The notes under the pieces: generated by a model
What the model was told of the DNA's origin: nothing
Seen by the model: the letters and a program-made list of their open reading frames with translations, nothing else
Databases searched by the model: none
Shown: positions 6,953 to 41,798 of the stretch, one piece after another
How the letters are laid out: each line of letters starts with the position of its first letter
How positions within the stretch are numbered: position 1 is the first letter of the stretch
From: a virus
Taxonomy: Duplodnaviria; Heunggongvirae; Uroviricota; Caudoviricetes
Reading direction: 5' to 3' (one strand)
DNA length: 44,064 bases
IMG/VR virus record: IMGVR_UViG_2711768014_000006
Position numbers and translations under genes: made by a program

Positions 6953-7486
6953 ATGATTGATGCAAAAGTGCTTGAAGGGGTTAAAAACTGGCTGTGTATT
7001 TATGGCCGCCTGACCTGCGGTGTACTGGCTGAAAAAATGAATATGCCGCCATCCTCCATGGTTTATTTTCTGCGTGATGCGGTTGATGCAGGCGTGCTGA
7101 CGGAATGTAACGGTTTTTATGATATTCCGCGTCCCCGCCCGGTGCAGCCGGTTCGTCGCAAATGCAGCCAGGAATCTGCGGCTGATGATGTTCAGTGGTG
7201 CGGCTTCAGAAAATCCCTGCCATGGATTGAGGGGCATGATATTCCGTCGATGGCGTGGGAATTTGCTCAGGGCGTTCTGACCTGTGAAACCGTTTATGTG
7301 GTGGCTGAAGTTGATGAGCAGGCCATGAAAGAAGGCGTGCCCCAGTTTGTGATGGCGTATATCGACATACGCCTGGGCGTCATTATCTGCGGTTTAAGCG
7401 GCTGGAATATCACTGAACATGTTCTGCGCTACCTGATTGTTGACCGGACAGCAGCGCCTGCCGGGATATCTGCGGAGGTGGCGTAA
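6953..7486 (+). CDS. Hypothetical protein
   Basis: 177-aa ORF with RBS, after a 145-bp AT-rich intergenic gap. Confidence 0.5.
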   Translation: MIDAKVLEGVKNWLCIYGRLTCGVLAEKMNMPPSSMVYFLRDAVDAGVLTECNGFYDIPRPRPVQPVRRKCSQESAADDVQWCGFRKSLPWIEGHDIPSMAWEFAQGVLTCETVYVVAEVDEQAMKEGVPQFVMAYIDIRLGVIICGLSGWNITEHVLRYLIVDRTAAPAGISAEVA

Positions 7487-8001
7487 TGTTCTTTAAAACA
7501 TCAAACCCTTCCGCGCTGGCTGCGTGGCAAAAATACCAGCAGGACTGCCAGAAAGTTAAGGATGAGGCAAAACGCCTTGAGGCCGTGCTGAATGTTGCGT
7601 GCCGGTCGGTATTTGTATCCGGTATCAGTGGATTTTACTTTAAGGGACTGCGTTTTACGGAGGACAAATATCCTTTTCATCGCGACTTATGGCGAAAACC
7701 GACTGCGTCGAATGGCTGGAGCTGCACACCGCGCACATCACGTATCCCTAAAACCCTGCGTGTTGCCTCTGATGAACTGAACAGTCTGTGGCGTGAATAT
7801 TCGCCCGTCACGTATGCCAGAACCGATGCGCTGTTGTTCTGGTTGGGTATTGATTTCTCGGCAATCCTGTTTGGCCCTGTGAAGTGGTTCTGCGTTGACG
7901 ATGTGATTTACCTTCAGTGCGGCGTAAAACCCGCAAAACAGAAAATGACCGAAATACTGTCTGATGAGTTTTATGCTGCTGAAAAGCGAGTCAGGGGGTG
8001 A
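7486..8001 (+). CDS. Hypothetical protein
   Basis: 171-aa ORF, translationally coupled. Confidence 0.5.
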   Translation: MFFKTSNPSALAAWQKYQQDCQKVKDEAKRLEAVLNVACRSVFVSGISGFYFKGLRFTEDKYPFHRDLWRKPTASNGWSCTPRTSRIPKTLRVASDELNSLWREYSPVTYARTDALLFWLGIDFSAILFGPVKWFCVDDVIYLQCGVKPAKQKMTEILSDEFYAAEKRVRG

Positions 8002-10183: not shown

Positions 10184-10606
10184 ATGGCTGAAACACAGAT
10201 GAGCATGTTTGGTGACAGCGAACAGCTGCACGCGCTGATTGACCGTCTGGATGATATTCCTGATGATGAGCTGAAAAAGAACTGGCCCGGCACGCTGCGG
10301 GACCTGGTTGATGTGATCAGTGCTGAACTGCACCGTCAGGGGATTGAACCTGCTCAGGCGGGAATGCTTGCCCGTAAGGTTGCAGCCGCACAGGCCGGGT
10401 ACATGGGCGGGCGTGGTTATTATCTCCCGGTCGGTGAATCCCTTTTCACCGAACTGCGCAATAATGAAATTTTTTCCCGCTGGAGCCAGGGCGAAAAAAT
10501 TGAAACCCTGCGCCGCCACTACCAGATGTCAGAGACGCAGATTTACTCCGTTATCCGCAACCAGCGTCGCCTGCATCAGGAACGCACGCAGCCACGGCTT
10601 TTCTGA
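10184..10606 (+). CDS. Mor/C-family transcriptional activator
   Basis: 140-aa product with Mor/C-like sequence; only one family member is present. Confidence 0.8.
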   Translation: MAETQMSMFGDSEQLHALIDRLDDIPDDELKKNWPGTLRDLVDVISAELHRQGIEPAQAGMLARKVAAAQAGYMGGRGYYLPVGESLFTELRNNEIFSRWSQGEKIETLRRHYQMSETQIYSVIRNQRRLHQERTQPRLF

Positions 10607-10677
10607 TATTCCGCAAATCCTGCCCCCTTTTCCTCACGGTTACGCTGACTCAGAGAACACCATGAGACAGCGTAACA

Positions 10678-18662: not shown

Positions 18663-18839
18663 TGGTTTAAGGTATGCAAACGTATTACCTTACCCCCTTC
18701 AGGCGCGTGTCGTGATTTTCTAACCTGTATTTAACGGGCTTTAAAATCTGCGTGAAGCGCCTTTCTCATTCCCCCCCTGTCAGCACTTTCTGAAGTCCCG
18801 CAAAACCAGCCCCAAAAATACCCGGCTTATGCTGCCGGT

Positions 18840-27133: not shown

Positions 27134-28478
27134 CACGCCGGGGCGTGGCTCCTTTCGTGGCGTACCGTTCCTGGTTTATCAGGAGCAGCGGGAACGGGGC
27201 GGACGTAACATTGTGCGCCGTGAATACCCACTGCGTGAAAGCGGCGGTGCGGATGATCTGGGGCCAAAACTCCCGGAGTTCACATTCACGGTTCTGGTGA
27301 CCGGAGACGATCTTCAGACACAGCGAAGCCGCCTGCGTGATGCGCTGCGTGCACCCGGTGCCGGTGAACTGATGCACCCGGATTACGGCACGTTAAACGT
27401 GCTGATAAACAGCTTTGAAAGCCGTTATAACGCCAGCGAGCAGGGAACGGTTGAGTTCACGATCAACGTGATCCCCGCCAGTGACGATACCGCCCCTGCG
27501 GTGGCAGAAGATACGGCAGCTGCGCTGGAGCAGAAAAGCGGCTCAGCAATGAATCAGCTGTTTAACACGCTTTCAGACGGCTGGACGGTGATTTCAGACG
27601 GTCTGCATGATGTACAGGCCATGACCGACACCATCAGCGATAAGATTGATGCACTGGAGAATGCCGTTTCGGGGATGGGGATTGTGCAGGATATCAGTGC
27701 CTTTACGGCCAGTTTTACTGCCCTGAAAGGCAATGCCGCCGCCCTGATTAATGCGCCCCGTCGCATGGCTGAATCGCTGGCCGGAATGTTTGCCGTGCTG
27801 ACCGGGCTGCCCGGCGATCCTTCCCTGTCTCTGACCGGAAAAGCCGGAACGCCGTCCGGCAGCCTGACCACAAACCGTGACAGCATGGCAGAGCAGGCCA
27901 TGCCGCAGCTGTACCGCACACTTTCCTCCCTGCGTTACACCCTCAGCGAACAGGATGATCCACAGCGCCTGATTGGCCTGACGCCTGCGGCACAGAAAAA
28001 TATCCGTCTGCTGCGGAGCGTGATGCAGAGTGCAACCCTGGTGTCGCAGGCACAGACGCTCGGAAAACTGCTGGATCAGGTCATCCGGCAGAATACGACG
28101 CACGTTCAGGATACTGACCGTTCGGGCGGACTGGCCTGGCTGGAAAGTTCTGCTGATGTGCAGCGTATCAACCGGGATTTGAGCGATGCCATGGAACAAC
28201 AGGTGCTGGATCTGTCCGCACAGGGCTATACCGGGACTGCCCTTGCATTACGTGATGCAGGGCTTGCGCTGACAGAAGATTTAACCACACGGAGCGTGCA
28301 TCTTCCCGGTGCTTTTCAGGTCATGGTTCGCACCACCGAACCGGCACTGGTCACGCTGTACCGTGCCACCGGCAACAGCAGTCGCTGGCAGTATTTTGTC
28401 CGCAGAAACAATATCCCCGATCCGGTTTTTGTTCCGGGTGGCCGCAGCGTGGAGGTGATCAGTGAGCAGCAGGATTGA
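27120..28478 (+). CDS. DNA circularisation protein (Mu N-like)
   Basis: 452-aa ORF after the tape measure gene. Confidence 0.75.
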   Translation: MASTDTPGRGSFRGVPFLVYQEQRERGGRNIVRREYPLRESGGADDLGPKLPEFTFTVLVTGDDLQTQRSRLRDALRAPGAGELMHPDYGTLNVLINSFESRYNASEQGTVEFTINVIPASDDTAPAVAEDTAAALEQKSGSAMNQLFNTLSDGWTVISDGLHDVQAMTDTISDKIDALENAVSGMGIVQDISAFTASFTALKGNAAALINAPRRMAESLAGMFAVLTGLPGDPSLSLTGKAGTPSGSLTTNRDSMAEQAMPQLYRTLSSLRYTLSEQDDPQRLIGLTPAAQKNIRLLRSVMQSATLVSQAQTLGKLLDQVIRQNTTHVQDTDRSGGLAWLESSADVQRINRDLSDAMEQQVLDLSAQGYTGTALALRDAGLALTEDLTTRSVHLPGAFQVMVRTTEPALVTLYRATGNSSRWQYFVRRNNIPDPVFVPGGRSVEVISEQQD

Positions 28479-32253: not shown

Positions 32254-33134
32254 TGTTTCATGTTGATAATAATTCCGGCGTGGCGAATATGCCTGCGCTG
32301 GCACCGGCGCAGAGTAATACCACCACCTGGTTTACCGAAGGTGACGGACAAAAAGGTATCAGCTGGATTGGTCAGGACTGGCTGAATATTCTCCAGGCCG
32401 AACTGCTGAATATTCTGGCTGAAGCCAGTATTCAGCCGGATAAGGCGCAGTTAAACCAGCTTACGCTGTCCATTAAAGCCATTATCGCTGCGAATGCCTT
32501 TTCCCGGAAAAATAACCTGAAAGAAATTGCTGATGCCGGTGCGGAGGCCCAGCGTCTGGCCCGTGGTTATCTTGGTCTGGGGACGCTTGCCACAAAAAAC
32601 AGTCTTGGTCCCGCTGACGTTAATGCCCTGGCGAAGGATCAGAATCTCGCCGACCTGGAGAATAAGGGAACCGCCCGTAATAATCTGGATGTTTACAGCA
32701 AAAGCGAAGGTGATAACCGTTACCTGCGCAGGGAGCAGAACGGCGCAGACATTCCGGATAAAGGGGCTTTTATCGATAACGTCGGTTTACGGGAAACGGT
32801 AAACAGGGCGGCGAATGCCCTGCCATCGGACGGCACCGCCGTTGCCGCGAACAGGCTGGCAAATGCCCACACAATTAATGGTGTTCCCTTTGACGGGACG
32901 CAGGATATCACTATCTCATCAGGAACAGTAACCGCCATAAGACTGGGGTCGGTGACCGCACATATGCCCGGAACATGGGAAAGCTGGGATCTGAATCTGG
33001 GGGGCGGCAATGTTCTTACCGGAATTAAAGTACAGGATGTCGGTAAGAATACGGCAGATAACGTCGGCGGCGTGTATTACCGGCCGTTGCAGTATCTGTT
33101 AAATGGAGCATGGGTGACGGCTGCAAGTATATAA
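32253..33134 (+). CDS. Tail fibre protein S (constant part plus the currently expressed variable part)
   Basis: 293-aa ORF; its 3' portion from about 32783 lies inside the invertible segment. Confidence 0.75.
32783..32851 (+). repeat. Left inverted repeat of the invertible tail-fibre segment (contains the recombination site)
   Basis: 69 bp, identical except one mismatch to the reverse complement of 34031..34099. Confidence 0.65.
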
Positions 33135-33143
33135 TGATATTCA

Positions 33144-33167
33144 GAAGGCCTTCCGGCCTTCTTTATT
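33144..33167. terminator. Bidirectional terminator hairpin between convergent S and tail-fibre-assembly genes
   Basis: GAAGGCC-TTCC-GGCCTTC followed by TTTATT. Confidence 0.5.
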
Positions 33168-33687
33168 ACTGTGGCTGCTCAGGCCATTTAATGGCGTTAA
33201 ATTCAGCTTCTGTTTTAATGGCGGGTAGTTCCATTTTCTTCACCTGACTGATGTATGCCATCCATTGGGTAAGTGCTGCTCTGTCTTCATCGCTGATGGT
33301 GCCCAGTTGTAGCTCCGTTCTCCAGTCATTAATTTTTTCATATGCCTGATTAAGATATGACTGGCGCATTGCTTCCAGTTTTCTTGCGTAGTTAACCGGA
33401 ATACGGGAGATTATGCCATTATCAAACTTCCAGTTTCCTGAAATATCCGTGCCTTCAGGGAGTTCATCGACCTCAACCACAGAAAACCCCGCAGGATACA
33501 GCGCCGAGGCGTCCTGTGATATTGAGCAGATAACGCCGCTGTCAGGTGTTATGCAAAGTTTATATTTTTTGGTGAATAATGGCAGGGATTCGTAGAAATC
33601 CTTACCATCTTCACTCTGGAAATACTGAACATTATTACCATATGGCATATTTTCAGGATAATAACGGGTTATATTTTTTAGTTCCAT
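33166..33687 (-). CDS. Tail fibre assembly protein (U'-like) inside the invertible segment
   Basis: 173-aa minus-strand ORF with AGGAGG RBS. Confidence 0.75.
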   Translation of the reverse strand: MELKNITRYYPENMPYGNNVQYFQSEDGKDFYESLPLFTKKYKLCITPDSGVICSISQDASALYPAGFSVVEVDELPEGTDISGNWKFDNGIISRIPVNYARKLEAMRQSYLNQAYEKINDWRTELQLGTISDEDRAALTQWMAYISQVKKMELPAIKTEAEFNAIKWPEQPQ

Positions 33688-33740
33688 AAAATCCTCCTGG
33701 AAATAAATCTGTTTTAAAATATATTATTTACTGACTATTT

Positions 33741-34099
33741 ATAACTGAGATACCGTAATCCATGTACCTCCGACTAATTTTTGCAGGGGTCTGAATGCTA
33801 TAAAATCGTTTGAAGCATCAACTTTACTGTCAATCTGCAGGCCTGCCATAACATTACCGTACGCAGAGTAATATGCCCCACCGTACATTACCTGCCTGTT
33901 CTCTGCTCCCAGCCTGATATCCTGGATATATCGGGAATCCGCATCCTGCTGTGTTATACCAGAAGTGATGTTTATGTCCTGCGTCCCGTCAAAGGGAACC
34001 CCATTAATATTTCTTGGGGTGGCGAGTCTATTCGCGGCAACGGCGGTGCCGTCCGATGGCAGAGCATTCGCCGCCCTGTTTACCGTTTCCCGTAAACCG
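33741..34099 (-). CDS. Alternative tail-fibre variable segment (S'v), no start codon of its own
   Basis: Minus-strand reading frame continuous with the S frame through the inverted repeat, ending ...GTWITVSQL at a TAA (plus 33741-33743); would be fused to the S constant part after inversion. Confidence 0.4.
34031..34099 (-). repeat. Right inverted repeat of the invertible tail-fibre segment
   Basis: Reverse complement matches 32783..32851. Confidence 0.65.
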
Positions 34100-34177
34100 A
34101 GGTTTTCAGGAAAGCCAGGATTAACTCTGTTTTATTCCTCATGCGACAATTCCGGCTTTTTATAATAAGGAAATCGT

Positions 34178-34750
34178 ATGCTGATTGGGTATATCAGGGT
34201 GTCAACAAATGACCAGAATACGGCGCTACAAAGAAATGCGCTGGAATGTGCAGGATGTGAGCTGTTTTTCGAAGACAGAATAAGCGGTAAGACAAGGGAG
34301 CGTCCCGGACTTAAACGCGCATTAAAGCGACTCCGGCCAGGGGATACCCTGCTGGTCTGGAAACTGGATCGCCTTGGACGCAGTATGCAGCACCTTGTCC
34401 TTTTAACAGAAGAACTCCGGCAACGCGGCGTTAACTTCCGCAGCATTACGGACAATATTGATACATCCACTCCCATGGGACGTTTCTTTTTCCATATAAT
34501 GGGCGCGCTGGCGGAAATGGAGCGGGAACTCATTATTGAACGTACACGCGCGGGTCTTGCTGCTGCCCGTGCTCAGGGGCGTCATGGCGGCAGACCTCAG
34601 AAACTGACAGAGAAAGAGCGGGAGCAAATCGCCCGTTTGCTGGCTAATGGCGAGTCCCGTAAACAAATCGCACTGATATTTGATATTGGCCTTTCCACCC
34701 TTTATCGTTATTTTCCTGCCTCACCAGCTCCGTCACCAAAAGTACCGTGA
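34178..34750 (+). CDS. gin: Serine DNA invertase (Gin/Hin/Pin family)
   Basis: MLIGYIRVSTNDQNTALQ... with catalytic Ser and C-terminal HTH; sits just outside the right inverted repeat. Confidence 0.9.
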   Translation: MLIGYIRVSTNDQNTALQRNALECAGCELFFEDRISGKTRERPGLKRALKRLRPGDTLLVWKLDRLGRSMQHLVLLTEELRQRGVNFRSITDNIDTSTPMGRFFFHIMGALAEMERELIIERTRAGLAAARAQGRHGGRPQKLTEKEREQIARLLANGESRKQIALIFDIGLSTLYRYFPASPAPSPKVP

Positions 34751-34835
34751 CGCTTTTTTGAATTTCCGCAAAACACATATTTTTCAGCGGTCGCTATTCT
34801 GACTCTGTTTAATTCAGAAACAGGCAGAAAAGACG

Positions 34836-36890
34836 ATGTCAGACTCCAAGTGGAAAATGCTCTCCGCCATGCCCGGAGAGTTTTCAGTCAAGGTTGCCGG
34901 TGGCACGGTGGCATTTATTGAAAGCCCTTTCCGCCCTTCGGGTAATAAAGGGGGGATCACCTTCGCAGACTGCGTGATCCGCTTCAGCACGAAAGAGCCA
35001 TTATGGGTAATGCCGGTATCCGGTAATCCCAGTGCAGAAATCACCAGTTCAGGCGTGACTGGCATCATTCCAATCACATCTGACGTGGCCGGAACGCTCA
35101 CGCCCTCCGACTGGAATGCACCGGATAACGCCGGGCCTTCCGGTAGCACGAATGGCAGCAGTTCAGAGCCGGAATATTACTTTGTTGTCATTCTCGCGGG
35201 TCAGTCAAATGGCATGGCCTACGGCGAGGGGCTGCCGTTACCGGATTCGTTTGACCGCCCGGACCCACGCATTAAGCAACTGGCACGCCGCAGTACGGTA
35301 ACGCCCAACGGTACGTCGTGTACATACAACGACATCATTCCGGCAGACCACTGCCTGCATGATGTTCAGGATATGAGCGGGATAAACCACCCGAAAGCTG
35401 ATCTGGCAAAAGGCCAGTACGGGACTGTCGGTCAGGGGTTGCATATTGCCAAAAAACTGCTTCCCTATATCCCACAGAATGCCGGGATACTTCTGGTGCC
35501 CTGTTGTCGTGGCGGGTCAGCATTCACCACTGGAGCCGACGGCTCATTCAGTGAGGCCAGCGGTGCTTCCGCTGATTCTTCACGCTGGGGGGCCGGTAAA
35601 CCTCTGTATCAGGACCTGGTAAGCCGCACCAAAGTCGCGCTGGCGAAAAACCCGAAAAACAAACTTCTGGCTGTGGTCTGGATGCAGGGAGAGGCAGACC
35701 TTGCCTCAGGAAGCCAGCAGCATAATAGTTTATTCACGGCCATGGTTCAGCAGTTCAGAACTGACCTGGCTCCGCTTGCTGCGCAGTGCGTGAGTGGAAA
35801 TGCCACCACGGTGCCGTGGATTTGCGGTGATACCACGTATTACTGGAAAAACGCTGGCACCGATAAATATGAGGCAGTATACGGTGGCTACAAAGGCAAG
35901 GAAGCACAGAAAATTTTCTTTGTACCGTTCCTGACGGATGAGAATGGACAGAGCACGCCAACGAATGCTCCGGCGGAAGACCCGGATATTGTGGCTGTCG
36001 GGTATTACGGTGCAGCATCCCGAACCCAGGGCAGTTTTGTTTCGACACAGCGTGACAGCCATTTCAGCTCATGGGCACGCAGGGGCGTCATTTCAGACCG
36101 TCTGGCCTCAGCTATTATGCTCCATGCAGGGCGCACGGCTGAACTGATGCGTGGGCAGACCGTGACACCACCGGATGAGAAGCCGTCACCTGATACACCA
36201 TCAAAACCGTCCACGCCACCCGCAGACACCACGACGATGAGTACGCTATTTGCTTACCGGGCATCTGAGTCTGAAGGACGGTTGACACCACAGGGTTGGG
36301 CTGCCGGAGGTGGCAAGGCTCAAATCGTGGATGATGCCGGAGCCAGCGGGGGTAAGGCAATGAAACTGACCAAGGAAACAGGAAGAGCCCCCTGGTACCT
36401 TGAGCATGATGCTGGTAATGGTGCGGACCTGCTGGGTAAAGGTGGTCTTGTCAGTTGTCGTTTTAAACTCGATGGCGCGCTTACGGCTAATCAGTACGCA
36501 CTGGCGCTGTACTGGCCGGTTTCTGCCCTGCCGCAAGGGGTTACTCTGGAAGGAAATGCCGGTCATAACCTGCTGGCATCGTTCTACGTACAGAGCGATG
36601 CCACAGACCTTAACGTGATGTATCACAAAGGAAACACGGCGCAGAACACGAAGCTGGGGTCATTCGGCGCATTTAATAACGAATGGCATACGCTGGGCTT
36701 CCGTTTTGCCGGTAACAACAGTATTGAGGTGACGCCGGTCATTGATGGTAAGGACGGGACACCATTCATGCTGTCGCAGTCTCCGGTCGGCACGTTTACG
36801 GCAGACAAGTTGCGCGTGACCGATATCACTAAAAATGCGACTTACCCGGTACTGATTGACAGTATCGTGGTGGAAGTGAATAACGCGTAA
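34836..36890 (+). CDS. SGNH/sialate-O-acetylesterase-domain protein with N- and C-terminal extra domains (NanS-p-like prophage esterase candidate)
   Basis: Motif YFVVILAGQSNGMAYGEGLPLPD (GQSN esterase motif) about 130 aa in; Pro/Thr-rich linker then a C-terminal beta-rich domain; 684 aa. Confidence 0.6.
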   Translation: MSDSKWKMLSAMPGEFSVKVAGGTVAFIESPFRPSGNKGGITFADCVIRFSTKEPLWVMPVSGNPSAEITSSGVTGIIPITSDVAGTLTPSDWNAPDNAGPSGSTNGSSSEPEYYFVVILAGQSNGMAYGEGLPLPDSFDRPDPRIKQLARRSTVTPNGTSCTYNDIIPADHCLHDVQDMSGINHPKADLAKGQYGTVGQGLHIAKKLLPYIPQNAGILLVPCCRGGSAFTTGADGSFSEASGASADSSRWGAGKPLYQDLVSRTKVALAKNPKNKLLAVVWMQGEADLASGSQQHNSLFTAMVQQFRTDLAPLAAQCVSGNATTVPWICGDTTYYWKNAGTDKYEAVYGGYKGKEAQKIFFVPFLTDENGQSTPTNAPAEDPDIVAVGYYGAASRTQGSFVSTQRDSHFSSWARRGVISDRLASAIMLHAGRTAELMRGQTVTPPDEKPSPDTPSKPSTPPADTTTMSTLFAYRASESEGRLTPQGWAAGGGKAQIVDDAGASGGKAMKLTKETGRAPWYLEHDAGNGADLLGKGGLVSCRFKLDGALTANQYALALYWPVSALPQGVTLEGNAGHNLLASFYVQSDATDLNVMYHKGNTAQNTKLGSFGAFNNEWHTLGFRFAGNNSIEVTPVIDGKDGTPFMLSQSPVGTFTADKLRVTDITKNATYPVLIDSIVVEVNNA

Positions 36891-37034
36891 GCAGGATAAA
36901 AAAATGCCGCCGGTAAGGGAAAACAAGAAACCGGCGGCAAAAAGATCGTTATATCCAAAGCAAAAAATGCAGTGCACCTTTTTACCTAACAGATATTACC
37001 GGTGTCAACACCATGTCAATAATTGGGAGGGATA

Positions 37035-37217
37035 ATGACATTTTTACAGCTTATTTTATTGTATTTCTGCACGGCAGTATGTGCGTTATATCTGGTGAGT
37101 GGTGGTTATAAGGCCATCAGAAATTATGTTCGCCGCAAAATTGAGGACGCAGCAGCTGAAAAACTCAGTAAAACAGCGCAGGTAACTCCGCTCCCAAAAG
37201 ACCCGACCCAGCCCTGA
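37035..37217 (+). CDS. Small membrane protein
   Basis: ATG at 37035 after GGGAGGG; N-terminal hydrophobic helix FLQLILLYFCTAVCALYLV. Confidence 0.4.
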   Translation: MTFLQLILLYFCTAVCALYLVSGGYKAIRNYVRRKIEDAAAEKLSKTAQVTPLPKDPTQP

Positions 37218-37252
37218 TTGCAGGGCTTTATTCCCGCATAAGGAGGATATAC

Positions 37253-37507
37253 ATGCCAGAAATTAAAGGCACCGTCACTGAAGACCTGGTAAAACAGGCA
37301 CTGTATTCCGGTGAAGTAAATAAGTTGCTGAAAGCGCAGGTCCGCAAGGATTTTGAGGCACAAATCGACACTTACGTTGATGAAGTGCTGGCAAAACTTA
37401 TTGGGCCAGCAGTTGCGGCCAGTGATGCTGATAATGAGCCGAAAACCGACGCGCAGCCAGAGCAACCAGACCCGGCTCAGCCCGGAACTGACAGTACCAT
37501 GATGTAA
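37253..37507 (+). CDS. Small acidic hypothetical protein
   Basis: AAGGAGG RBS; 84 aa with Pro/Asp/Glu-rich tail. Confidence 0.45.
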   Translation: MPEIKGTVTEDLVKQALYSGEVNKLLKAQVRKDFEAQIDTYVDEVLAKLIGPAVAASDADNEPKTDAQPEQPDPAQPGTDSTMM

Positions 37508-37513
37508 CAATAC

Positions 37514-37539
37514 AAACCGGTGGTGTCCTCTGCCGGTTT
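37514..37539. terminator. Possible bidirectional terminator hairpin between convergent small genes
   Basis: AAACCGG-TGGTGTCCTCTG-CCGGTTT between the plus gene ending at 37507 and the minus gene ending at 37675. Confidence 0.35.
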
Positions 37540-37674
37540 GACACTAATGAAAACATCTTTGCCGCTATCCAGCCATATGTAATCGCTGGATAGTATTTCG
37601 TATTCAGAAATATAGCTGCTTATGGAGCAGTCAATCCTGCTTCCCCATCCGGGCAGGCAAATGAACCGGTATCA

Positions 37675-37968
37675 TTAGTCCGATTCACGCTTTTGTAGAA
37701 TCGTTCCCAGAATGCTATACAGCTCATTAGCCTGTTGCTCCATCATTGAGACGGAGGCTATACGGTGCAAAGTGATTTCAGGAGGTGGCACACCTCCATC
37801 TTCTTGCTGTGGAGGAAAAACATAAGATTTAATAAAAAAGTTGAAGCATATGAACTCTCCCGCACTCGAACTGTATTTGCAGGCATCTGAATAATCGGAA
37901 AAATAATCATTATAGATTTCCGCATTTTCAATCATTTTTCGATTTCTCGTCGTTACATGATTGTCCAT
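37675..37968 (-). CDS. Hypothetical protein (minus strand, AT-rich)
   Basis: 97-aa ORF with AAGAGG RBS, divergent from com-mom. Confidence 0.4.
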   Translation of the reverse strand: MDNHVTTRNRKMIENAEIYNDYFSDYSDACKYSSSAGEFICFNFFIKSYVFPPQQEDGGVPPPEITLHRIASVSMMEQQANELYSILGTILQKRESD

Positions 37969-38091
37969 AGCAGCCTCTTACGCTGGCAATTAACCAATTG
38001 ACTTCTATAAATTAGTTGATTTGTTTGCTTTGCGGTATTCAAATGTACAATCATTCAGCACTTATGCGTTACAGCACCGTTTAAAATTAGT

Positions 38092-38177
38092 GATCAAACT
38101 CATAAATTTTCGCTAATGACATTTCGTGTTATTTGTTGTATCAATTAAATAAATCAAATCGATCGTTTTTGTCGATC
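38092..38177 (+). promoter_or_regulatory. Three GATC sites upstream of com-mom (candidate Dam-methylation-sensitive control region)
   Basis: GATC at 38092, 38161 and 38174 in an AT-rich divergent intergenic region; parallels the Mu mom control region. Confidence 0.35.
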
Positions 38178-38224
38178 GATTGAGTGATAAAGATATCAAC
38201 AACAAAGCAGGAGGTTATGCGGCC

Positions 38225-38425
38225 ATGTATCGAAACATACGGTGCCGACATTGTAACAAGCTACTGGCACGAGCCAGCTTCAGTTATCTGGAAGTTAAAT
38301 GTCCGCGCTGTAAAACCCTCAATCAAATCACATCTCAGAGCGCCACAGAGCACCCCACATACACAAGGAAATCCTGTCGTGGGGAACAGAAAGCAAGTTA
38401 CATCCCGTATCATCAGCACGCCTGA
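38225..38425 (+). CDS. com: Com-like zinc-finger translational activator
   Basis: [35 protein letters not shown]... closely resembles Mu Com (IRCKNCNKLL...IRCPRCK); AGGAGG 10 nt upstream of the ATG. Confidence 0.7.
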
Positions 38426-39116
38426 ACTTATTCACTATAACGACAATATCGTCGGTTATGGCTCCCGTGAGTTACGGGTTGAGACAATAAGTTGCTGGCT
38501 GGCCCGGCTGGTCGTCGTCAATAAACATTACAGCCATCGTTTCGTAAATAATTCCTACCTTCATCTGGGCATATTTTCAGAACGGGAGCTGGTTGGCGTA
38601 ATGCAATGGGGTTATGCCCTTAATCCAAACAATGGTGCACGCGTCGTAACTGGCACGCAGAACCGCGAATATATGGAGCTTAACCGGTTATGGCTGCATG
38701 ACTGTATGCCGAGAAACTCCGAATCAAGGGCAATCAGTTACGCGCTCAAACTAATCAGACAACTTTATCCGCAGGTGCAGTGGGTTCAGTCGTTTGCAGA
38801 TGAGCGTTGTGGCTGTCTTGGTGTCGTGTACCAGGCAAGCAATTTTGATTATGTAGGCAGTCATGAAACAACATTCTATGAACTTGATGGCGAGTGGTAT
38901 CACGAGATTTGCAAGAATGCAATCAAACGAGGAGGACAGCGAGGTGAACATCTGCGGGCTAATATCGACAGAGCCAGTGTTCATAAATTCCGTCAGTTTC
39001 GTTACATCCGGTTTCTGGACAAGAGAGCCAGAAAACGCCTTAACACAAAGCTATTCAAAGTCCAGCCTTACCCAAAACCACAAACAGTTAAAACTGGTTT
39101 GAAAGAGAGTGAATGA
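38379..39116 (+). CDS. mom: Mom-like DNA modification protein; start uncertain (the open frame extends upstream to 38184)
   Basis: Frame overlaps the 3' end of com as in Mu; a GTG at 38379 gives about 245 aa, close to the ~241 aa I recall for Mu Mom. Confidence 0.55.
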
Positions 39117-39230: not shown

Positions 39231-39274
39231 ATCGCCGCGCTATAGACAGCCTAAGCGGCTGCTGACCTCCCTGA

Positions 39275-39830
39275 CCATGCTGTAAATCTCTTTATCCTGG
39301 TTGTCACAGAATAAGCCCGGTAAAATACGGGCTTATGAACGACATCTCTTCTGACGACATCTTCCTGCTGAAACAGCGCCTTGCCGAACGTCAGTTGAAA
39401 ACGAAACCGCTGCTGAAATCCCTGGAAAGCTGGCTGCGTGAAAAGATGAAAACCCTGTCGCGACACTCAGAACTGGCGAAAGCGTTCGCATATGCCCTGA
39501 ACCAGTGGCCGGCGCTGACGTACTATGCAGATGATGGCTGGGCTGAGGCGGACAATAACATCGCTGAAAATGCGTTGCGGATGGTCAGTCTGGGCCGCAA
39601 AAACTACCTGTTCTTCGGTTCGGATCATGGAGGAGAGCGGGGAGCGCTGCTGTACAGCCTGATCGGGACGTGCAAACTGAACGGAGTGGAGCCAGAAAGC
39701 TACCTCCGCTATGTCCTTGACGTCATAGCCGACTGGCCGATAAACCGGGTCGGCGAACTGCTCCCCTGGCGCGTAGCACTGCCGACTGAATAACACATTC
39801 CCGTCAATACGGTTCTTGCTGCACGCTTAC
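39275..39830 (+). mobile_element. IS66-family element, right portion, ending at the IS terminus
   Basis: Reverse complement of 39813-39830 is GTAAGCGTGCAGCAAGAA, the GTAA-type terminal repeat of IS66-family elements as I recall it. Confidence 0.55.
39335..39793 (+). pseudogene. IS66-family transposase TnpC, C-terminal fragment (about 150 of ~520 aa)
   Basis: ...ADDGWAEADNNIAENALRMVSLGRKNYLFFGSDHGGERGALLYSLIGTCKLNGVEPESYLRYVLDVIADWPINRVGELLPW matches the conserved C-terminus of IS66 transposases; the N-terminal two thirds are absent. Confidence 0.75.
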
Positions 39831-39846
39831 GGTAAACACCCCGGAA

Positions 39847-40875
39847 GTGGTGATGCACACTGTTGCTGATGTGATGACAGGAAACGATGGTGAATACTGT
39901 TTCCATGCGCGGACTGGAAAATATGGTGTGTATCTGAAACCGGGCTGGCACAACGAGTACAACGTTGGCGACATTGCTGTATACGACGACTCAAAGCCCG
40001 GCACGCTGAATGACTTTCTGATTGCTCCTGATGAGGGCGACCTGAAACCGGATGTCGTCAAACGCTTTGAGGAAATGGTGGCGCAGGCGCAGCAGAGCGC
40101 CGGGGCAGCAGGCGAAAAGGCACAACAGAAGTCCCGGGATAATCTGGGGCTGAAAAGTGCGGCCACGATGGAAGCACAGAGCGACATTTACGACCGGACA
40201 AAAGGCCGTCTGGCGATACCCGGCGCATTCGGCTTTGGGTGTGCTTTTCTGCCTGAAGATGTTATCCGTTTTGACACTAAGAGTGATTTCCTGGCCTGGG
40301 TAAGGAATGCGCTGCCAGGTGAATATTCCGTTGCTGGCCCCTACGACATCATCATACCCGACACACGGTTTGAAGGGGTGCTCAGCATCCGGTGGACTGA
40401 TGCACGCCCTGAGACAACAGAACCGAGGTACAGAGCCAAATCCCTTACTTTTTACGGCATTAACGGCCCCATTTATCACACCCGCTACTGCTACTGGCCC
40501 ATATCCAGACTGACTGGCTGGGTGAAAATAAATATAACCACAGAAGATATTATTTACAGAATCGTGGCGAGCTCTGTCTGCAACAGATGGGGAGACCCTG
40601 ACATTGGCGGGCTGATTATTGCTGCGTACCAGGGAGAAGCTGACGGTGATAAAGTCATCAGACTTGTCAGGGGGCAGTCATACAGAGGCTCACGACTGGG
40701 ACCGGTGGGGATTTCAGTGCCCAGTACTCCCACCGGAACGTATATAGCATCCCCACAATTTTTCATTACGGGATGTTCAGAGCATTCATTACCGGGGTCA
40801 TATTGCGCCCTGTCCGGGGTGCCGGATGCTCATGTCTCTGGCGCAATGCCCGGGCTTTTTATTCGCACATCGTGA
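39847..40875 (+). CDS. Phage tail-fibre-like protein, probably a C-terminal fragment truncated by the IS66 insertion
   Basis: 342-aa ORF beginning 17 bp after the IS66 terminus, followed by a chaperone-like gene. Confidence 0.4.
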   Translation: MVMHTVADVMTGNDGEYCFHARTGKYGVYLKPGWHNEYNVGDIAVYDDSKPGTLNDFLIAPDEGDLKPDVVKRFEEMVAQAQQSAGAAGEKAQQKSRDNLGLKSAATMEAQSDIYDRTKGRLAIPGAFGFGCAFLPEDVIRFDTKSDFLAWVRNALPGEYSVAGPYDIIIPDTRFEGVLSIRWTDARPETTEPRYRAKSLTFYGINGPIYHTRYCYWPISRLTGWVKINITTEDIIYRIVASSVCNRWGDPDIGGLIIAAYQGEADGDKVIRLVRGQSYRGSRLGPVGISVPSTPTGTYIASPQFFITGCSEHSLPGSYCALSGVPDAHVSGAMPGLFIRTS

Positions 40876-40885
40876 GGAATGCACC

Positions 40886-41798
40886 GTGGAAATTAAAAAA
40901 ATCATTAATCCCCGTTATACCGAAAGTGGCGCAGTAGACTGTGACGTTTTTTTTGACGACAGGGACCAGGCAGTCCCCTACACAGCCACCGCTGATGATG
41001 TCGCACCGACGGGTCAGCGAATCTGGCAGGAACTGCAAAGTGGCAAATGGGGTGAGATAGCCCCATTCACTGTGACACCAGAAATGCTGGAAGCGGCCAG
41101 AGAGGCCAGACGTCAGGAAATTGAAGCATGGCGCACAGAACAGGAGGCGAAGCCGTTCACGTTTGAATGGAATGGTCGTATCTGGAATGCTGGCCCCGAC
41201 TCACTGGGCCGCCTGTCCCCGGTAGTCATGCTGGCAAAATCTGTCACAGCACAAACNNNNNNNNNNNNNNNNNNNNNNNNNNNNNNNNNNNNNNNNNNNN
41301 NNNNNNNNNNNNNNNNNNNNNNNNNNNNNNNNNNNNNNNNNNNNNNNNNNNNNNNNNNNNNNNNNNNNNNNNNNNNNNNNNNNNNNNNNNNNNNNNNNNN
41401 NNNNNNNNNNNNNNNNNNNNNNNNNNNNNNNNNNNNNNNNNNNNNNNNNNNNNNNNNNNNNNNNNNNNNNNNNNNNNNNNNNNNNNNNNNNNNNNNNNNN
41501 NNNNNNNNNNNNNNNNNNNNNNNNNNNNNNNNNNNNNNNNNNNNNNNNNNNNNNNNNNNNNNNNNNNNNNNNNNNNNNNNNNNNNNNNNNNNNNNNNNNN
41601 NNNNNNNNNNNNNNNNNNNNNGATGCCGATAATCAGCAGGTGAAACTGTCGATGCCGGAACTGGAAGAACTGGCGGCAGCAATGGTGCAGGCGCAGGTCG
41701 ATCGCAACGATGAGATTTATCGCCGTCAGCGTGAAATGAAAGAGGAGCTGAGTGGTCTGGAGGATTTGGGAACAATTAGAGCGTTTGATGTTACGTAA
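40886..41798 (+). CDS. Tail-fibre assembly/chaperone-like protein, interrupted by the assembly gap
   Basis: GTG start after GAGGAA; coding resumes after the N run and ends at TAA 41796-41798; frame continuity across the gap cannot be checked. Confidence 0.35.
41257..41621. other. Assembly gap (365 N)
   Basis: Run of N characters. Confidence 0.99.

Follow-up and report, generated by a model that had tools for sequence, protein, structure and literature searches.

We analyzed a 44,064-nucleotide (nt) stretch of viral DNA (IMG/VR record IMGVR_UViG_2711768014_000006; "the window" refers to this whole stretch), which carries a Mu-like Escherichia coli prophage of the Sp18 type, and we focused on the block that lies between its invertase gene gin and its com-mom genes. 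This block encodes a 684-amino-acid (aa) esterase of the NanS-p type, followed by a convergent small RNA (sRNA)-like gene and by two small proteins of the DUF1378 and DUF826 families. NanS-p has been studied only in Shiga toxin (Stx) and other lambdoid prophages, as a fitness factor of enterohemorrhagic E. coli (EHEC) in mucus; our literature search found no paper linking NanS-p to Mu-like phages, and the esterase goes unmentioned in papers on Sp18 and SfMu. We consider it very probable that the cassette is shared by E. coli temperate phages of two unrelated architectures. Both the enzyme family and the three-gene block were already known, and the enzymology is ordinary. What is new is the setting, together with a beta N-terminal domain that replaces DUF1737, a Mu-type late-promoter-like element, and a conserved minus-strand sRNA-like gene at the position occupied elsewhere by PasA.

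The position of the block was defined by comparison with phage Mu. In the window, gin (34178..34750) encodes a resolvase/HTH_7 invertase, com starts at 38225 (38180 if the TTG open reading frame [ORF] is used), and mom occupies 38379-39116. Only 94 bp separate the end of gin from com in Mu, and about 3.4 kb of extra DNA lies between them here, as a sequence-only reading of this stretch had noted. That reading had also set the block outside the tail operon, which held, and its ORF coordinates, GQSN motif, hairpin, and inverted repeat were all recovered where it had placed them. Two further features emerged: a promoter-like element 5′ of the esterase and a stronger hairpin just 3′ of its stop codon. 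The borders of the block are the 3′ end of gin and the mom control region; insertion in tandem or mediated by an insertion sequence (IS) was considered as its origin and rejected, as there are no repeats or transposase at the borders. The GC fraction is 0.52-0.58 across the esterase, 0.42-0.52 across the two small plus-strand genes, and 0.35-0.41 over 37650-38250, so that the AT-rich character first ascribed to the small-gene region as a whole belongs mainly to a minus-strand ORF and the mom control region.

The esterase ORF (34836..36890, plus strand) could be divided into domains. Searches against solved structures matched residues 110-428 to E. coli NanS/YjhS (PDB 3pt5, E 1.8e-117) and residues 469-683 to the C-terminal domain of NanS-p (PDB 6yp6, E 7e-98), while Pfam assigned SASA to residues 117-312 (E 1.5e-13, above the cut-off) and DUF6645 to residues 533-650 (E 7e-68). 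The SGNH type II sialate O-acetylesterase core thus delimited spans residues 113-430 (35172..36125), and the lectin-like jelly-roll C-terminal domain spans residues 469-684 (36240..36887). NanS is an SGNH type II esterase with Ser19 and His301 at its active site and a Gln in the oxyanion hole, and its catalytic Asp is missing (PMC9063846). The equivalent residues here are Ser124 as nucleophile, Gln123 in the oxyanion hole, and His409 as base (roles after PMC9063846), set in the motifs GQSN (residues 122-125) and RDSH (residues 406-409). RSSH, RASH, and RPTH are known variants of this last block; RDSH is a further one, also present in a lambdoid allele (P0030). Four aromatic residues form the proposed sugar site of the NanS-p lectin-like domain (PMC10462455), and all four are conserved, with Y554, Y559, Y584, and F654 aligning with Y510, Y515, Y540, and F611 of 933W NanS-p.

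By homology and catalytic residues, then, the 684-aa protein is a NanS-p-type sialate O-acetylesterase, and its substrate is predicted to be 9-O-acetyl sialic acid. The call of an SGNH/sialate-O-acetylesterase-like protein with a lectin-like C-terminal domain was borne out by the two structures and by Pfam. The accompanying expectation of a Ser-His-Asp triad fared less evenly: Ser124 and His409 are present, and the Asp part does not apply to this family, because NanS lacks a catalytic Asp and works by a Ser-His dyad. With chromosomal NanS (YjhS, 3pt5), the phage protein has in common the SGNH type II fold, the GQSN block, the dyad without Asp, and the oxyanion Gln. The two differ in that NanS belongs to the nan regulon and is a periplasmic enzyme with a single domain, whereas the 684-aa protein is phage-borne, adds the N-terminal and lectin-like C-terminal domains, and has no signal peptide.

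Relatives that are 50-69% identical over residues 94-684 are encoded in about 350 phage records, nearly all of them from Stx and other lambdoid phages, and the similarity to these phages extends beyond the enzyme. In phage 2851 the gene order is stx2 - nanS-p - DUF1378 - DUF826 - holin, and in another lambdoid locus (L010) it is Q - methylase - NanS-p (DUF1737) - DUF1378 - DUF826 - holin; in 933W, an unannotated DUF1378 directly follows L0105. The literature mentions the presence of DUF1378 and DUF826 next to nanS-p only in passing (PMC10462455). The window locus therefore has the core and lectin-like domain of lambdoid NanS-p (65-89% identical over residues 98-684) as well as the same downstream DUF1378, DUF826, and convergent sRNA-like element. 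Four differences stand against these shared features. Lambdoid NanS-p begins with DUF1737 and the window protein with an unrelated all-beta domain; the carrier here is a transposable Mu-like prophage of myovirus type; the lambdoid block lies between stx or Q and holin, whereas here it is found between gin and com-mom with no holin downstream; and control is by pR′ and Q antitermination in lambdoid phages but appears to be by a C-type late promoter here, which would tie both to a phage late program. The DNA 5′ of the esterase differs as well. Three lambdoid loci carry STnc100 (PasD-like) and the AsxR/AgvB anti-sRNAs upstream of the esterase (L003, 2921-3180; L004, 1502-1713; L010, 4600-4856), and an Rfam scan of the region upstream of the window esterase found no STnc100/PasD, AsxR, or AgvB.

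The sequence of the block is a mosaic. Over residues 98-684 the window esterase is 89% identical to lambdoid allele P0030 and 66% to the allele of O157 Mu-like prophages, which is itself 74% identical to 933W. At the DNA level, 35166-37093 is 88% identical to lambdoid locus L010, and this tract starts at the EPEYY junction of the esterase and ends within DUF1378, the first 16 residues of which are of the lambdoid type and the remainder of the Mu-lineage type. Between the two Mu-like types, the rest of DUF1378 is 74% identical and DUF826 72%; against lambdoid versions, the values are 53-57% and 39%, respectively. Because a lambdoid-like tract is thus combined with Mu-lineage alleles, the block is best read as an old resident that exchanges sequence with co-resident lambdoid prophages.

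Its distribution points the same way. Among complete E. coli genomes, 226 of 5426 have a com-mom region of this type (coverage of at least 80%), and in the same set the DNA of the esterase N-terminal domain was found as the window type in 28 genomes and as the O157 type in 205. Because the N-domain counts match the com-mom count, the block would be present in essentially every Sp18-like prophage, and it appears to be fixed in this Mu lineage. The lineage has two alleles of esterase-DUF1378-DUF826, only 66-74% identical. Insertion sites vary by genome (flgL, a motility gene, or the neighborhood of cmoM/mukF), as expected of a phage that transposes. Prophages that have lost gin keep the block (L006 and L013), and a distant Mu-like prophage outside E. 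coli (L017) has the same esterase type after its gin. Mu itself passes directly from gin to com-mom without the block, as do two other E. coli Mu-like prophages, from gin or from fiber genes. SfMu probably lacks it too, judging by a 1.5-kb gin-mom PCR product, as does D108, which has a Mu-sized genome with mom at its end. The sequence-only reading had proposed recent acquisition, which fits the slot at 37540-38115 described below but not the esterase, DUF1378, and DUF826, as these appear to be fixed in the lineage and occur as two alleles. As one ground for rejecting its own reading, it had named a module fixed in the tail gene set of all related Mu-like phages; this applies only in part, since the block appears to be fixed in one lineage but does not belong to the tail set of all Mu-like phages.

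We then examined how the esterase might be expressed. A 20-nt putative activator (C) site, TTTTTGAATTTCCGCAAAAC, lies at 34755-34774 on the plus strand, 61 nt 5′ of the esterase ATG, and a −10 hexamer, TATTCT, comes after it at 34795-34800, unaccompanied by a −35. Transcription is predicted to begin near 34807. This site was found by pattern match. The pattern, TTTCTGAWNTYCCGCAAAWC, was built only from the sites 5′ of lys (10600-10619) and I (18787-18806) and was searched with up to 3 mismatches, giving three matches in the 44-kb window (0.11 expected by chance): the two defining sites and 34755-34774, which has 1 mismatch and agrees with the lys and I sites at 17/18 specified positions. A 12-nt core pattern, TYCCGCARAAWC, was also tried and was not above chance, so only the 20-nt pattern is informative. 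The lys site precedes the endolysin gene (10678) and the I site precedes the protease/scaffold gene I (18840), making them the counterparts of Mu Plys and PI. At all three loci a TAnnCT hexamer follows the site, with a spacing of 20 nt at the esterase and 21 nt at lys and I; with +1 at 34807 the esterase site would span −52 to −33, and the lys and I sites span −53 to −34. Directly 5′ of the lys site is a gene of the Mor/C family (10184-10606). The promoter element is conserved in the window-type prophages (L001, L006, L007, and L013-L015), including those without gin, and the O157 type has a diverged element, TGAATTAACGCAAAAT ... TATGAT.

Mu has four late promoters that C activates, Plys, PI, PP, and Pmom. 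They share with the element described here a −10 without a −35 and an upstream site of about 20 bp with an imperfect dyad, TTTTG-N8-CAAAA, where C binds. Mu has no late promoter between gin and com, and the window appears to have a further one there, serving an accessory gene, with a lineage-specific site sequence. Late promoters of Mu are described as having a −10 and no −35, with C binding a dyad centered at −43.5 (PMC2582627). Given a Mu-type late-promoter-like element 5′ of the gene, we infer that the esterase is expressed late, probably along with DUF1378 and DUF826, and that its transcription depends on C. This fits the behavior of Stx phages, in which nanS-p expression rises on induction (PMC10462455). 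A sigma-70 scan of 5.4 kb returned 4 promoter-like sites against 6.9 expected, none placed to serve the esterase. A hairpin with T6 after gin was first read as a terminator and was rejected (z-score [z], −1.3).

These data suggest the following model, which we hold to be likely as a whole. In a Mu-like (Sp18-type) prophage, where the cassette is at the far end between gin and com-mom, the upstream elements of the lambdoid locus (STnc100/PasD, the AsxR sRNAs, and pR′-Q control) would have been replaced by a Mu-type late promoter, consisting of an activator site centered near −43 and a −10 with no −35, almost identical to the lys and I promoters, and an unrelated beta-domain would have taken the place of the capsid-binding DUF1737. 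The Mor/C homologue encoded at 10184-10606, as the late activator, would turn on the esterase together with the lysis and head genes. The enzyme would leave the cell at lysis, because, unlike chromosomal NanS, it has no signal peptide. Outside the cell it would strip 9-O-acetyl groups off mucin sialic acids, and the deacetylated sugars could then be used by surviving lysogen kin, or the particle could be helped in mucus if the N-terminal domain tethers the enzyme to the virion.

Several observations weigh against this model. The promoter call comes from sequence alone, and 2/3 motif hits are the sites that defined the pattern; the O157 element exceeds the 3-mismatch cut-off; and the regions 5′ of the baseplate gene P (28398-28409, GTCCGCAGAAAC) and of com (38110-38125, TTTTCGCTAATGAC) resemble the motif only loosely. 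If these last two regions are the equivalents of PP and Pmom, much variation must be tolerated in the activator site. With only a weak hairpin (z −1.3) behind gin, transcripts reading through from that gene could allow a degree of expression in the lysogen. Substrate specificity is taken only from the 65-89% identity to characterized relatives, and DUF1378 and DUF826 are known by family only.

The sRNA-like gene lies on the minus strand, convergent with the esterase, at 36898..37008. It has a −35 TTGACA (37008 to 37003) and a −10 TAAAAA (36984 to 36979), and the predicted RNA is about 75 nt long, from roughly 36972 to 36898. Its 3′ end is a 10-bp GC-rich stem (36905-36914 with 36930-36939) followed by U7 on the minus strand, read as A7 on the plus strand. 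This hairpin (36905-36939), directly 3′ of the esterase stop, folds at −20 kcal/mol (z −4.6 to −5.0), and the whole element folds at −23 kcal/mol (z −4.2); by its stem and U-tract, the hairpin is an intrinsic terminator for the minus strand. In six loci, drawn from both Mu-like and lambdoid prophages and 65-70% identical outside these features, the A7, the hairpin, and, about 65 nt further on, TTTTTA and TGTCAA are conserved; read on the minus strand, the last two are the −10 TAAAAA and the −35 TTGACA. In the stem, 92% of cells are paired, with 3 compensated pairs, compared to 24-60% when the partners were slid.

There is precedent for such a gene in EPEC (enteropathogenic E. coli) strain E2348/69, where PasA, an sRNA that depends on Hfq, is encoded right behind the esterase, on the minus strand, in a "> < >" arrangement (PMC8550237 Table S6). 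PasA has a minor 3′ end at the esterase stop codon, and PasA and PasC are reported between the esterase and holin. The window element agrees with PasA/PasC of EPEC and EHEC prophages (EcOnc51/52 being homologues of these) in place, strand, and GC-rich stem with U-tract, and differs in body sequence: blastn-short between PasA and the window element gave only 9-12-nt matches in the terminator tail, with the body and seed not aligned. Rfam returned full-length Esr41-like matches at the same spot and strand in the window, 2851, and 933W, which at 22-30 bits are below the threshold of 102 and serve as a positional clue only; Esr41 itself is located on SpLE1. We suggest that the window element is likely a member of a loosely conserved set of PasA-type sRNAs. 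In E. coli E2348/69 (L018, 2365-2640), the terminator-body-TGTCAA unit occurs twice in tandem after the esterase, the distal copy being PasA; the annotation shows no DUF1378 or DUF826 after the EPEC esterase.

The two small plus-strand genes complete the conserved block. DUF1378 (37035..37217; Pfam PF07125, E 1.2e-31; PHROG 494) is a basic, single-pass membrane protein of 60 aa counted from its ATG, or of 64 aa from an upstream TTG at 37023, with a mean hydropathy of about 2 over its N-terminal 19 residues and an isoelectric point (pI) of 9.3. DUF826 (37253..37507; Pfam PF05696, E 6.4e-16; PHROG 311) is an acidic, soluble protein of 84 aa with a pI of 4.2. The small membrane protein and small acidic protein seen in the letters alone are therefore these two families. 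At the right edge of the block, a plus-strand hairpin at 37514..37539 folds at −16.7 kcal/mol, better than shuffled sequence does (z −3.5), and could end the esterase-DUF1378-DUF826 transcript. It had been described as terminator-like, which is right as to folding; it has no U-tail beyond a UUU inside the stem.

The esterase's N-terminal domain sets the Mu-like enzymes apart. Residues 1-82 (34836..35081) form a small domain with a predicted all-beta fold in the place of DUF1737, itself a helix plus three strands, and a low-complexity Ser/Gly/Pro linker follows at residues 83-112 (35082..35171), ending in SSSEP just before the EPEYY core start. AlphaFold2 (AF2) models a small all-beta domain and then a disordered linker, with block-mean predicted local distance difference test (pLDDT) scores of 70-87 over residues 1-70 and below 50 at residues 82-107. 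The sequence is unrelated to the N-terminus of DUF1737-type alleles. A check against DUF1737 had been proposed, and the domain is not DUF1737: residues 1-82 have no match in Pfam, PF08410 included. Fold searches gave generic cupin/jelly-roll matches only, and sequence and fold searches found no homologue among tail proteins. An exhaustive HMMER search over 1.84 billion representatives returned 3 hits, two of them fragments of this same protein; a word-indexed protein search returned fragments only. The third hit (P0126) is 30% identical and has the domain fused via a Pro/Ser linker to a GQSN esterase. It sits at the contig end of L017, the non-E. coli Mu-like prophage, after baseplate and fiber genes, an invertible segment, and a gin-like resolvase. 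That contig ends inside the esterase gene, and it carries two small ORFs between the gin-like gene and the esterase (7426-7910), one of 58 aa with a C-terminal hydrophobic stretch and one of 87 aa. The domain was thus found in three Mu-like lineages, namely, the window type, the O157 Sp18 type (59-63% identical), and L017 (28-30% identical), and in no lambdoid phage. It is under purifying selection, with ratios of nonsynonymous to synonymous divergence (dN/dS) of 0.04 and 0.23 against close alleles; against the O157 allele, dN is 0.29 and dS is saturated.

To the right of the conserved block is a variable slot (37540..38115), which holds the inverted repeat and a 97-aa ORF and is replaced by other DNA in close relatives. 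Similarity to L007 (99.4%) stops at 37539 and similarity to L002 stops at 37536, resuming at about 38116-38130; the flanks match L007 at 95-99% and L002 at 78-95%, and the slot itself has no similarity to either. The minus-strand ORF fills the slot in the window, L001, L006, and L013, and other DNA fills it in L007 and the O157 type, with different annotated genes in L007 and L002. The fold energy of the 9-bp inverted repeat (37565-37593) is −15 to −17 kcal/mol, again better than that of shuffled sequence (z −4 to −5.3). The ORF (37675..37968, minus strand) encodes an acidic orphan protein, with a Shine-Dalgarno sequence, AAGAGG, 5 nt 5′ of the ATG at 37968. RefSeq annotates an 86-aa version, but the 97-aa start is better supported, as Met1 is conserved in a 79%-identical homologue and Met12 is not, and AAGAGG is placed for the ATG at 37968. 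Homologues, 79-99% identical, occur in E. coli and Shigella only, and the protein has no match in Pfam, PHROG, NCBIfam, or PADLOC; its AF2 model is poor (pLDDT 63). Compared with L013 (82.6% DNA identity), the frame is intact and dN/dS is 0.40. We conclude that this gene stands apart from the conserved cassette, as an exchangeable moron of its own.

Other roles for the block were weighed against late, lysis-released expression. The sequence-only reading favored a lysogenic-conversion or exclusion module, and neither half found direct support, given the late-type element, the lack of a sigma-70 promoter, and the lack of a credible PADLOC match. Under classical lysogenic conversion, the resting prophage would make the esterase and the lysogen would grow on O-acetylated sialic acids, which is the role proposed for lambdoid NanS-p (PMC10462455), and the weak hairpin after gin might allow constitutive read-through of the gin transcript. 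However, with neither a signal peptide on the enzyme nor an export gene in the cassette, release requires lysis; no sigma-70 promoter could be placed for the esterase (4 sites in 5.4 kb versus 6.9 expected); and expression in Stx phages follows induction. With a late-type element 5′ of the gene as well, we regard this role as unlikely. About as improbable is the idea that the small genes, above all the 97-aa ORF, form a superinfection-exclusion or defense module active in the lysogen. The ORF has much that is typical of morons, being on the opposite strand, AT-rich, equipped with its own ribosome-binding site, and in a slot filled differently in sister prophages, and DUF1378 is a small membrane protein. 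Against this, PADLOC gave no significant match for any cassette protein (the best, DUF826 to PbeC, has E 0.0076 and 12.9 bits), and no Pfam or PHROG function was assigned. DUF1378 and DUF826 lie on the late strand and accompany the esterase in two phage types rather than varying, and the 97-aa orphan, limited to E. coli/Shigella, is only mildly constrained (dN/dS 0.40). Least likely by far is a receptor-modifying tail enzyme, a spike or fiber accessory that deacetylates O-antigen or capsule. Such a role would suit a gene that follows the tail-fiber and gin region and has an N-terminal domain with no known partner; residues 211-312 also match a PHROG "tail protein" family weakly (E 1.2e-6), and there is 29% identity to an Arthrobacter minor tail protein. 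Yet the body is 65-89% identical to NanS-p and NanS, which are characterized on sialic acid, the sugar-site residues of the lectin-like domain are conserved, the same body lies far from tail genes in lambdoid phages, and this phage has its own S/U fiber set with an invertible segment. Nor does the gene belong to the tail module, as gin separates it from the tail genes, it has its own promoter-like element, and its N-domain has no tail-protein homologue.

The remaining alternative is less a rival to late expression than a refinement of it. The NanS-p protein of phi24B, gp84, is abundant in the virion, and DUF1737 is its capsid-binding domain, which occupies capsid hexons as a hexamer; the enzyme is subsequently released by cleavage, with the SISSP motif proposed as a processing site, and DUF1737 occurs mostly in single-domain proteins (bioRxiv 10.64898/2026.04.10.717836). 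By analogy, the Mu-type N-domain may anchor the esterase to the particle, at the capsid or the tail, a proposal that we take seriously while thinking it somewhat more probable that it is wrong. It would explain why a different domain occupies the same position as DUF1737, is found only with Mu-like prophages (three lineages), and is under purifying selection (dN/dS 0.04-0.23) while the enzyme body swaps with lambdoid alleles. The disordered Ser-rich linker ends in SSSEP, reminiscent of SISSP in gp84, and the predicted late promoter of the esterase resembles those of structural genes. Sp18-like virions, however, are known here from genes alone, and the exhaustive search found no stand-alone copies of the N-domain, whereas DUF1737 is mostly single-domain. 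The link to Mu could also be plain ancestry, with one fusion after which homologous exchange was confined to the part in common; such ancestry, or a second role in sugar binding, would account for the data equally well. A broader and still more speculative extension, which we hold to be doubtful at present, is that NanS-p proteins are modular, virion-displayed mucin-modifying enzymes whose N-terminal "plug" is swapped per carrier particle (DUF1737 for lambdoid capsids, the beta-domain for Mu-like particles), and that the whole cassette of esterase body, convergent Hfq-type sRNA, DUF1378, and DUF826 moves as a unit between unrelated phage types by homologous exchange and is wired each time into the local late regulon.

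Other features of the window were recorded alongside. The tail-fiber invertible segment (33739-34165 and 32720-33010) looks reduced compared with that of Mu. One fiber-assembly gene is complete on the minus strand (33166-33687) and is accompanied by a truncated S′-like remnant that RefSeq labels "incomplete"; compared with the S gene region of relatives, a repeat of about 100 bp (34001-34107) is inverted. Mu mom is under Dam/OxyR control, and directly 5′ of the TTG com ORF is a palindrome (38157-38181, AATCGATCGACAAAAACGATCGATT) with two CGATCG (Dam GATC) sites that may be related to such control. The right end of the Mu-like prophage is at 39244, where similarity to sister prophages ends. Past this point come a fragment from the C-terminus of an IS66-family transposase (39335-39793) and then a lambdoid "prophage tail fiber N-terminal" fragment (39847-40875), so the phage is inserted in or beside remnants of another prophage in this genome. 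A 365-N run (41257-41621), either a masked stretch or an assembly gap, falls within a tail-fiber-like ORF of that neighboring element and accounts for the GC of about 0 in the composition profile.

About 4% of complete E. coli genomes, including most of those from O157:H7, contain the lineage that carries this cassette, and the usual count of esterase copies is one too low for strains with an Sp18-like prophage. In its behavior the cassette is a unit recombining between phage types, and the predicted fifth late promoter would extend the Mu late regulon to an accessory gene. The cassette is also a natural experiment bearing on a recent claim, namely, that NanS-p is anchored to the capsid by its N-terminal domain. 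The finding is of moderate interest for phage modularity and for the emerging idea of NanS-p as a virion accessory. If it is true that the Mu-type domain binds Mu-like particles, the enzyme would be primarily a structural accessory of the phage and only secondarily a factor by which bacteria acquire nutrients.

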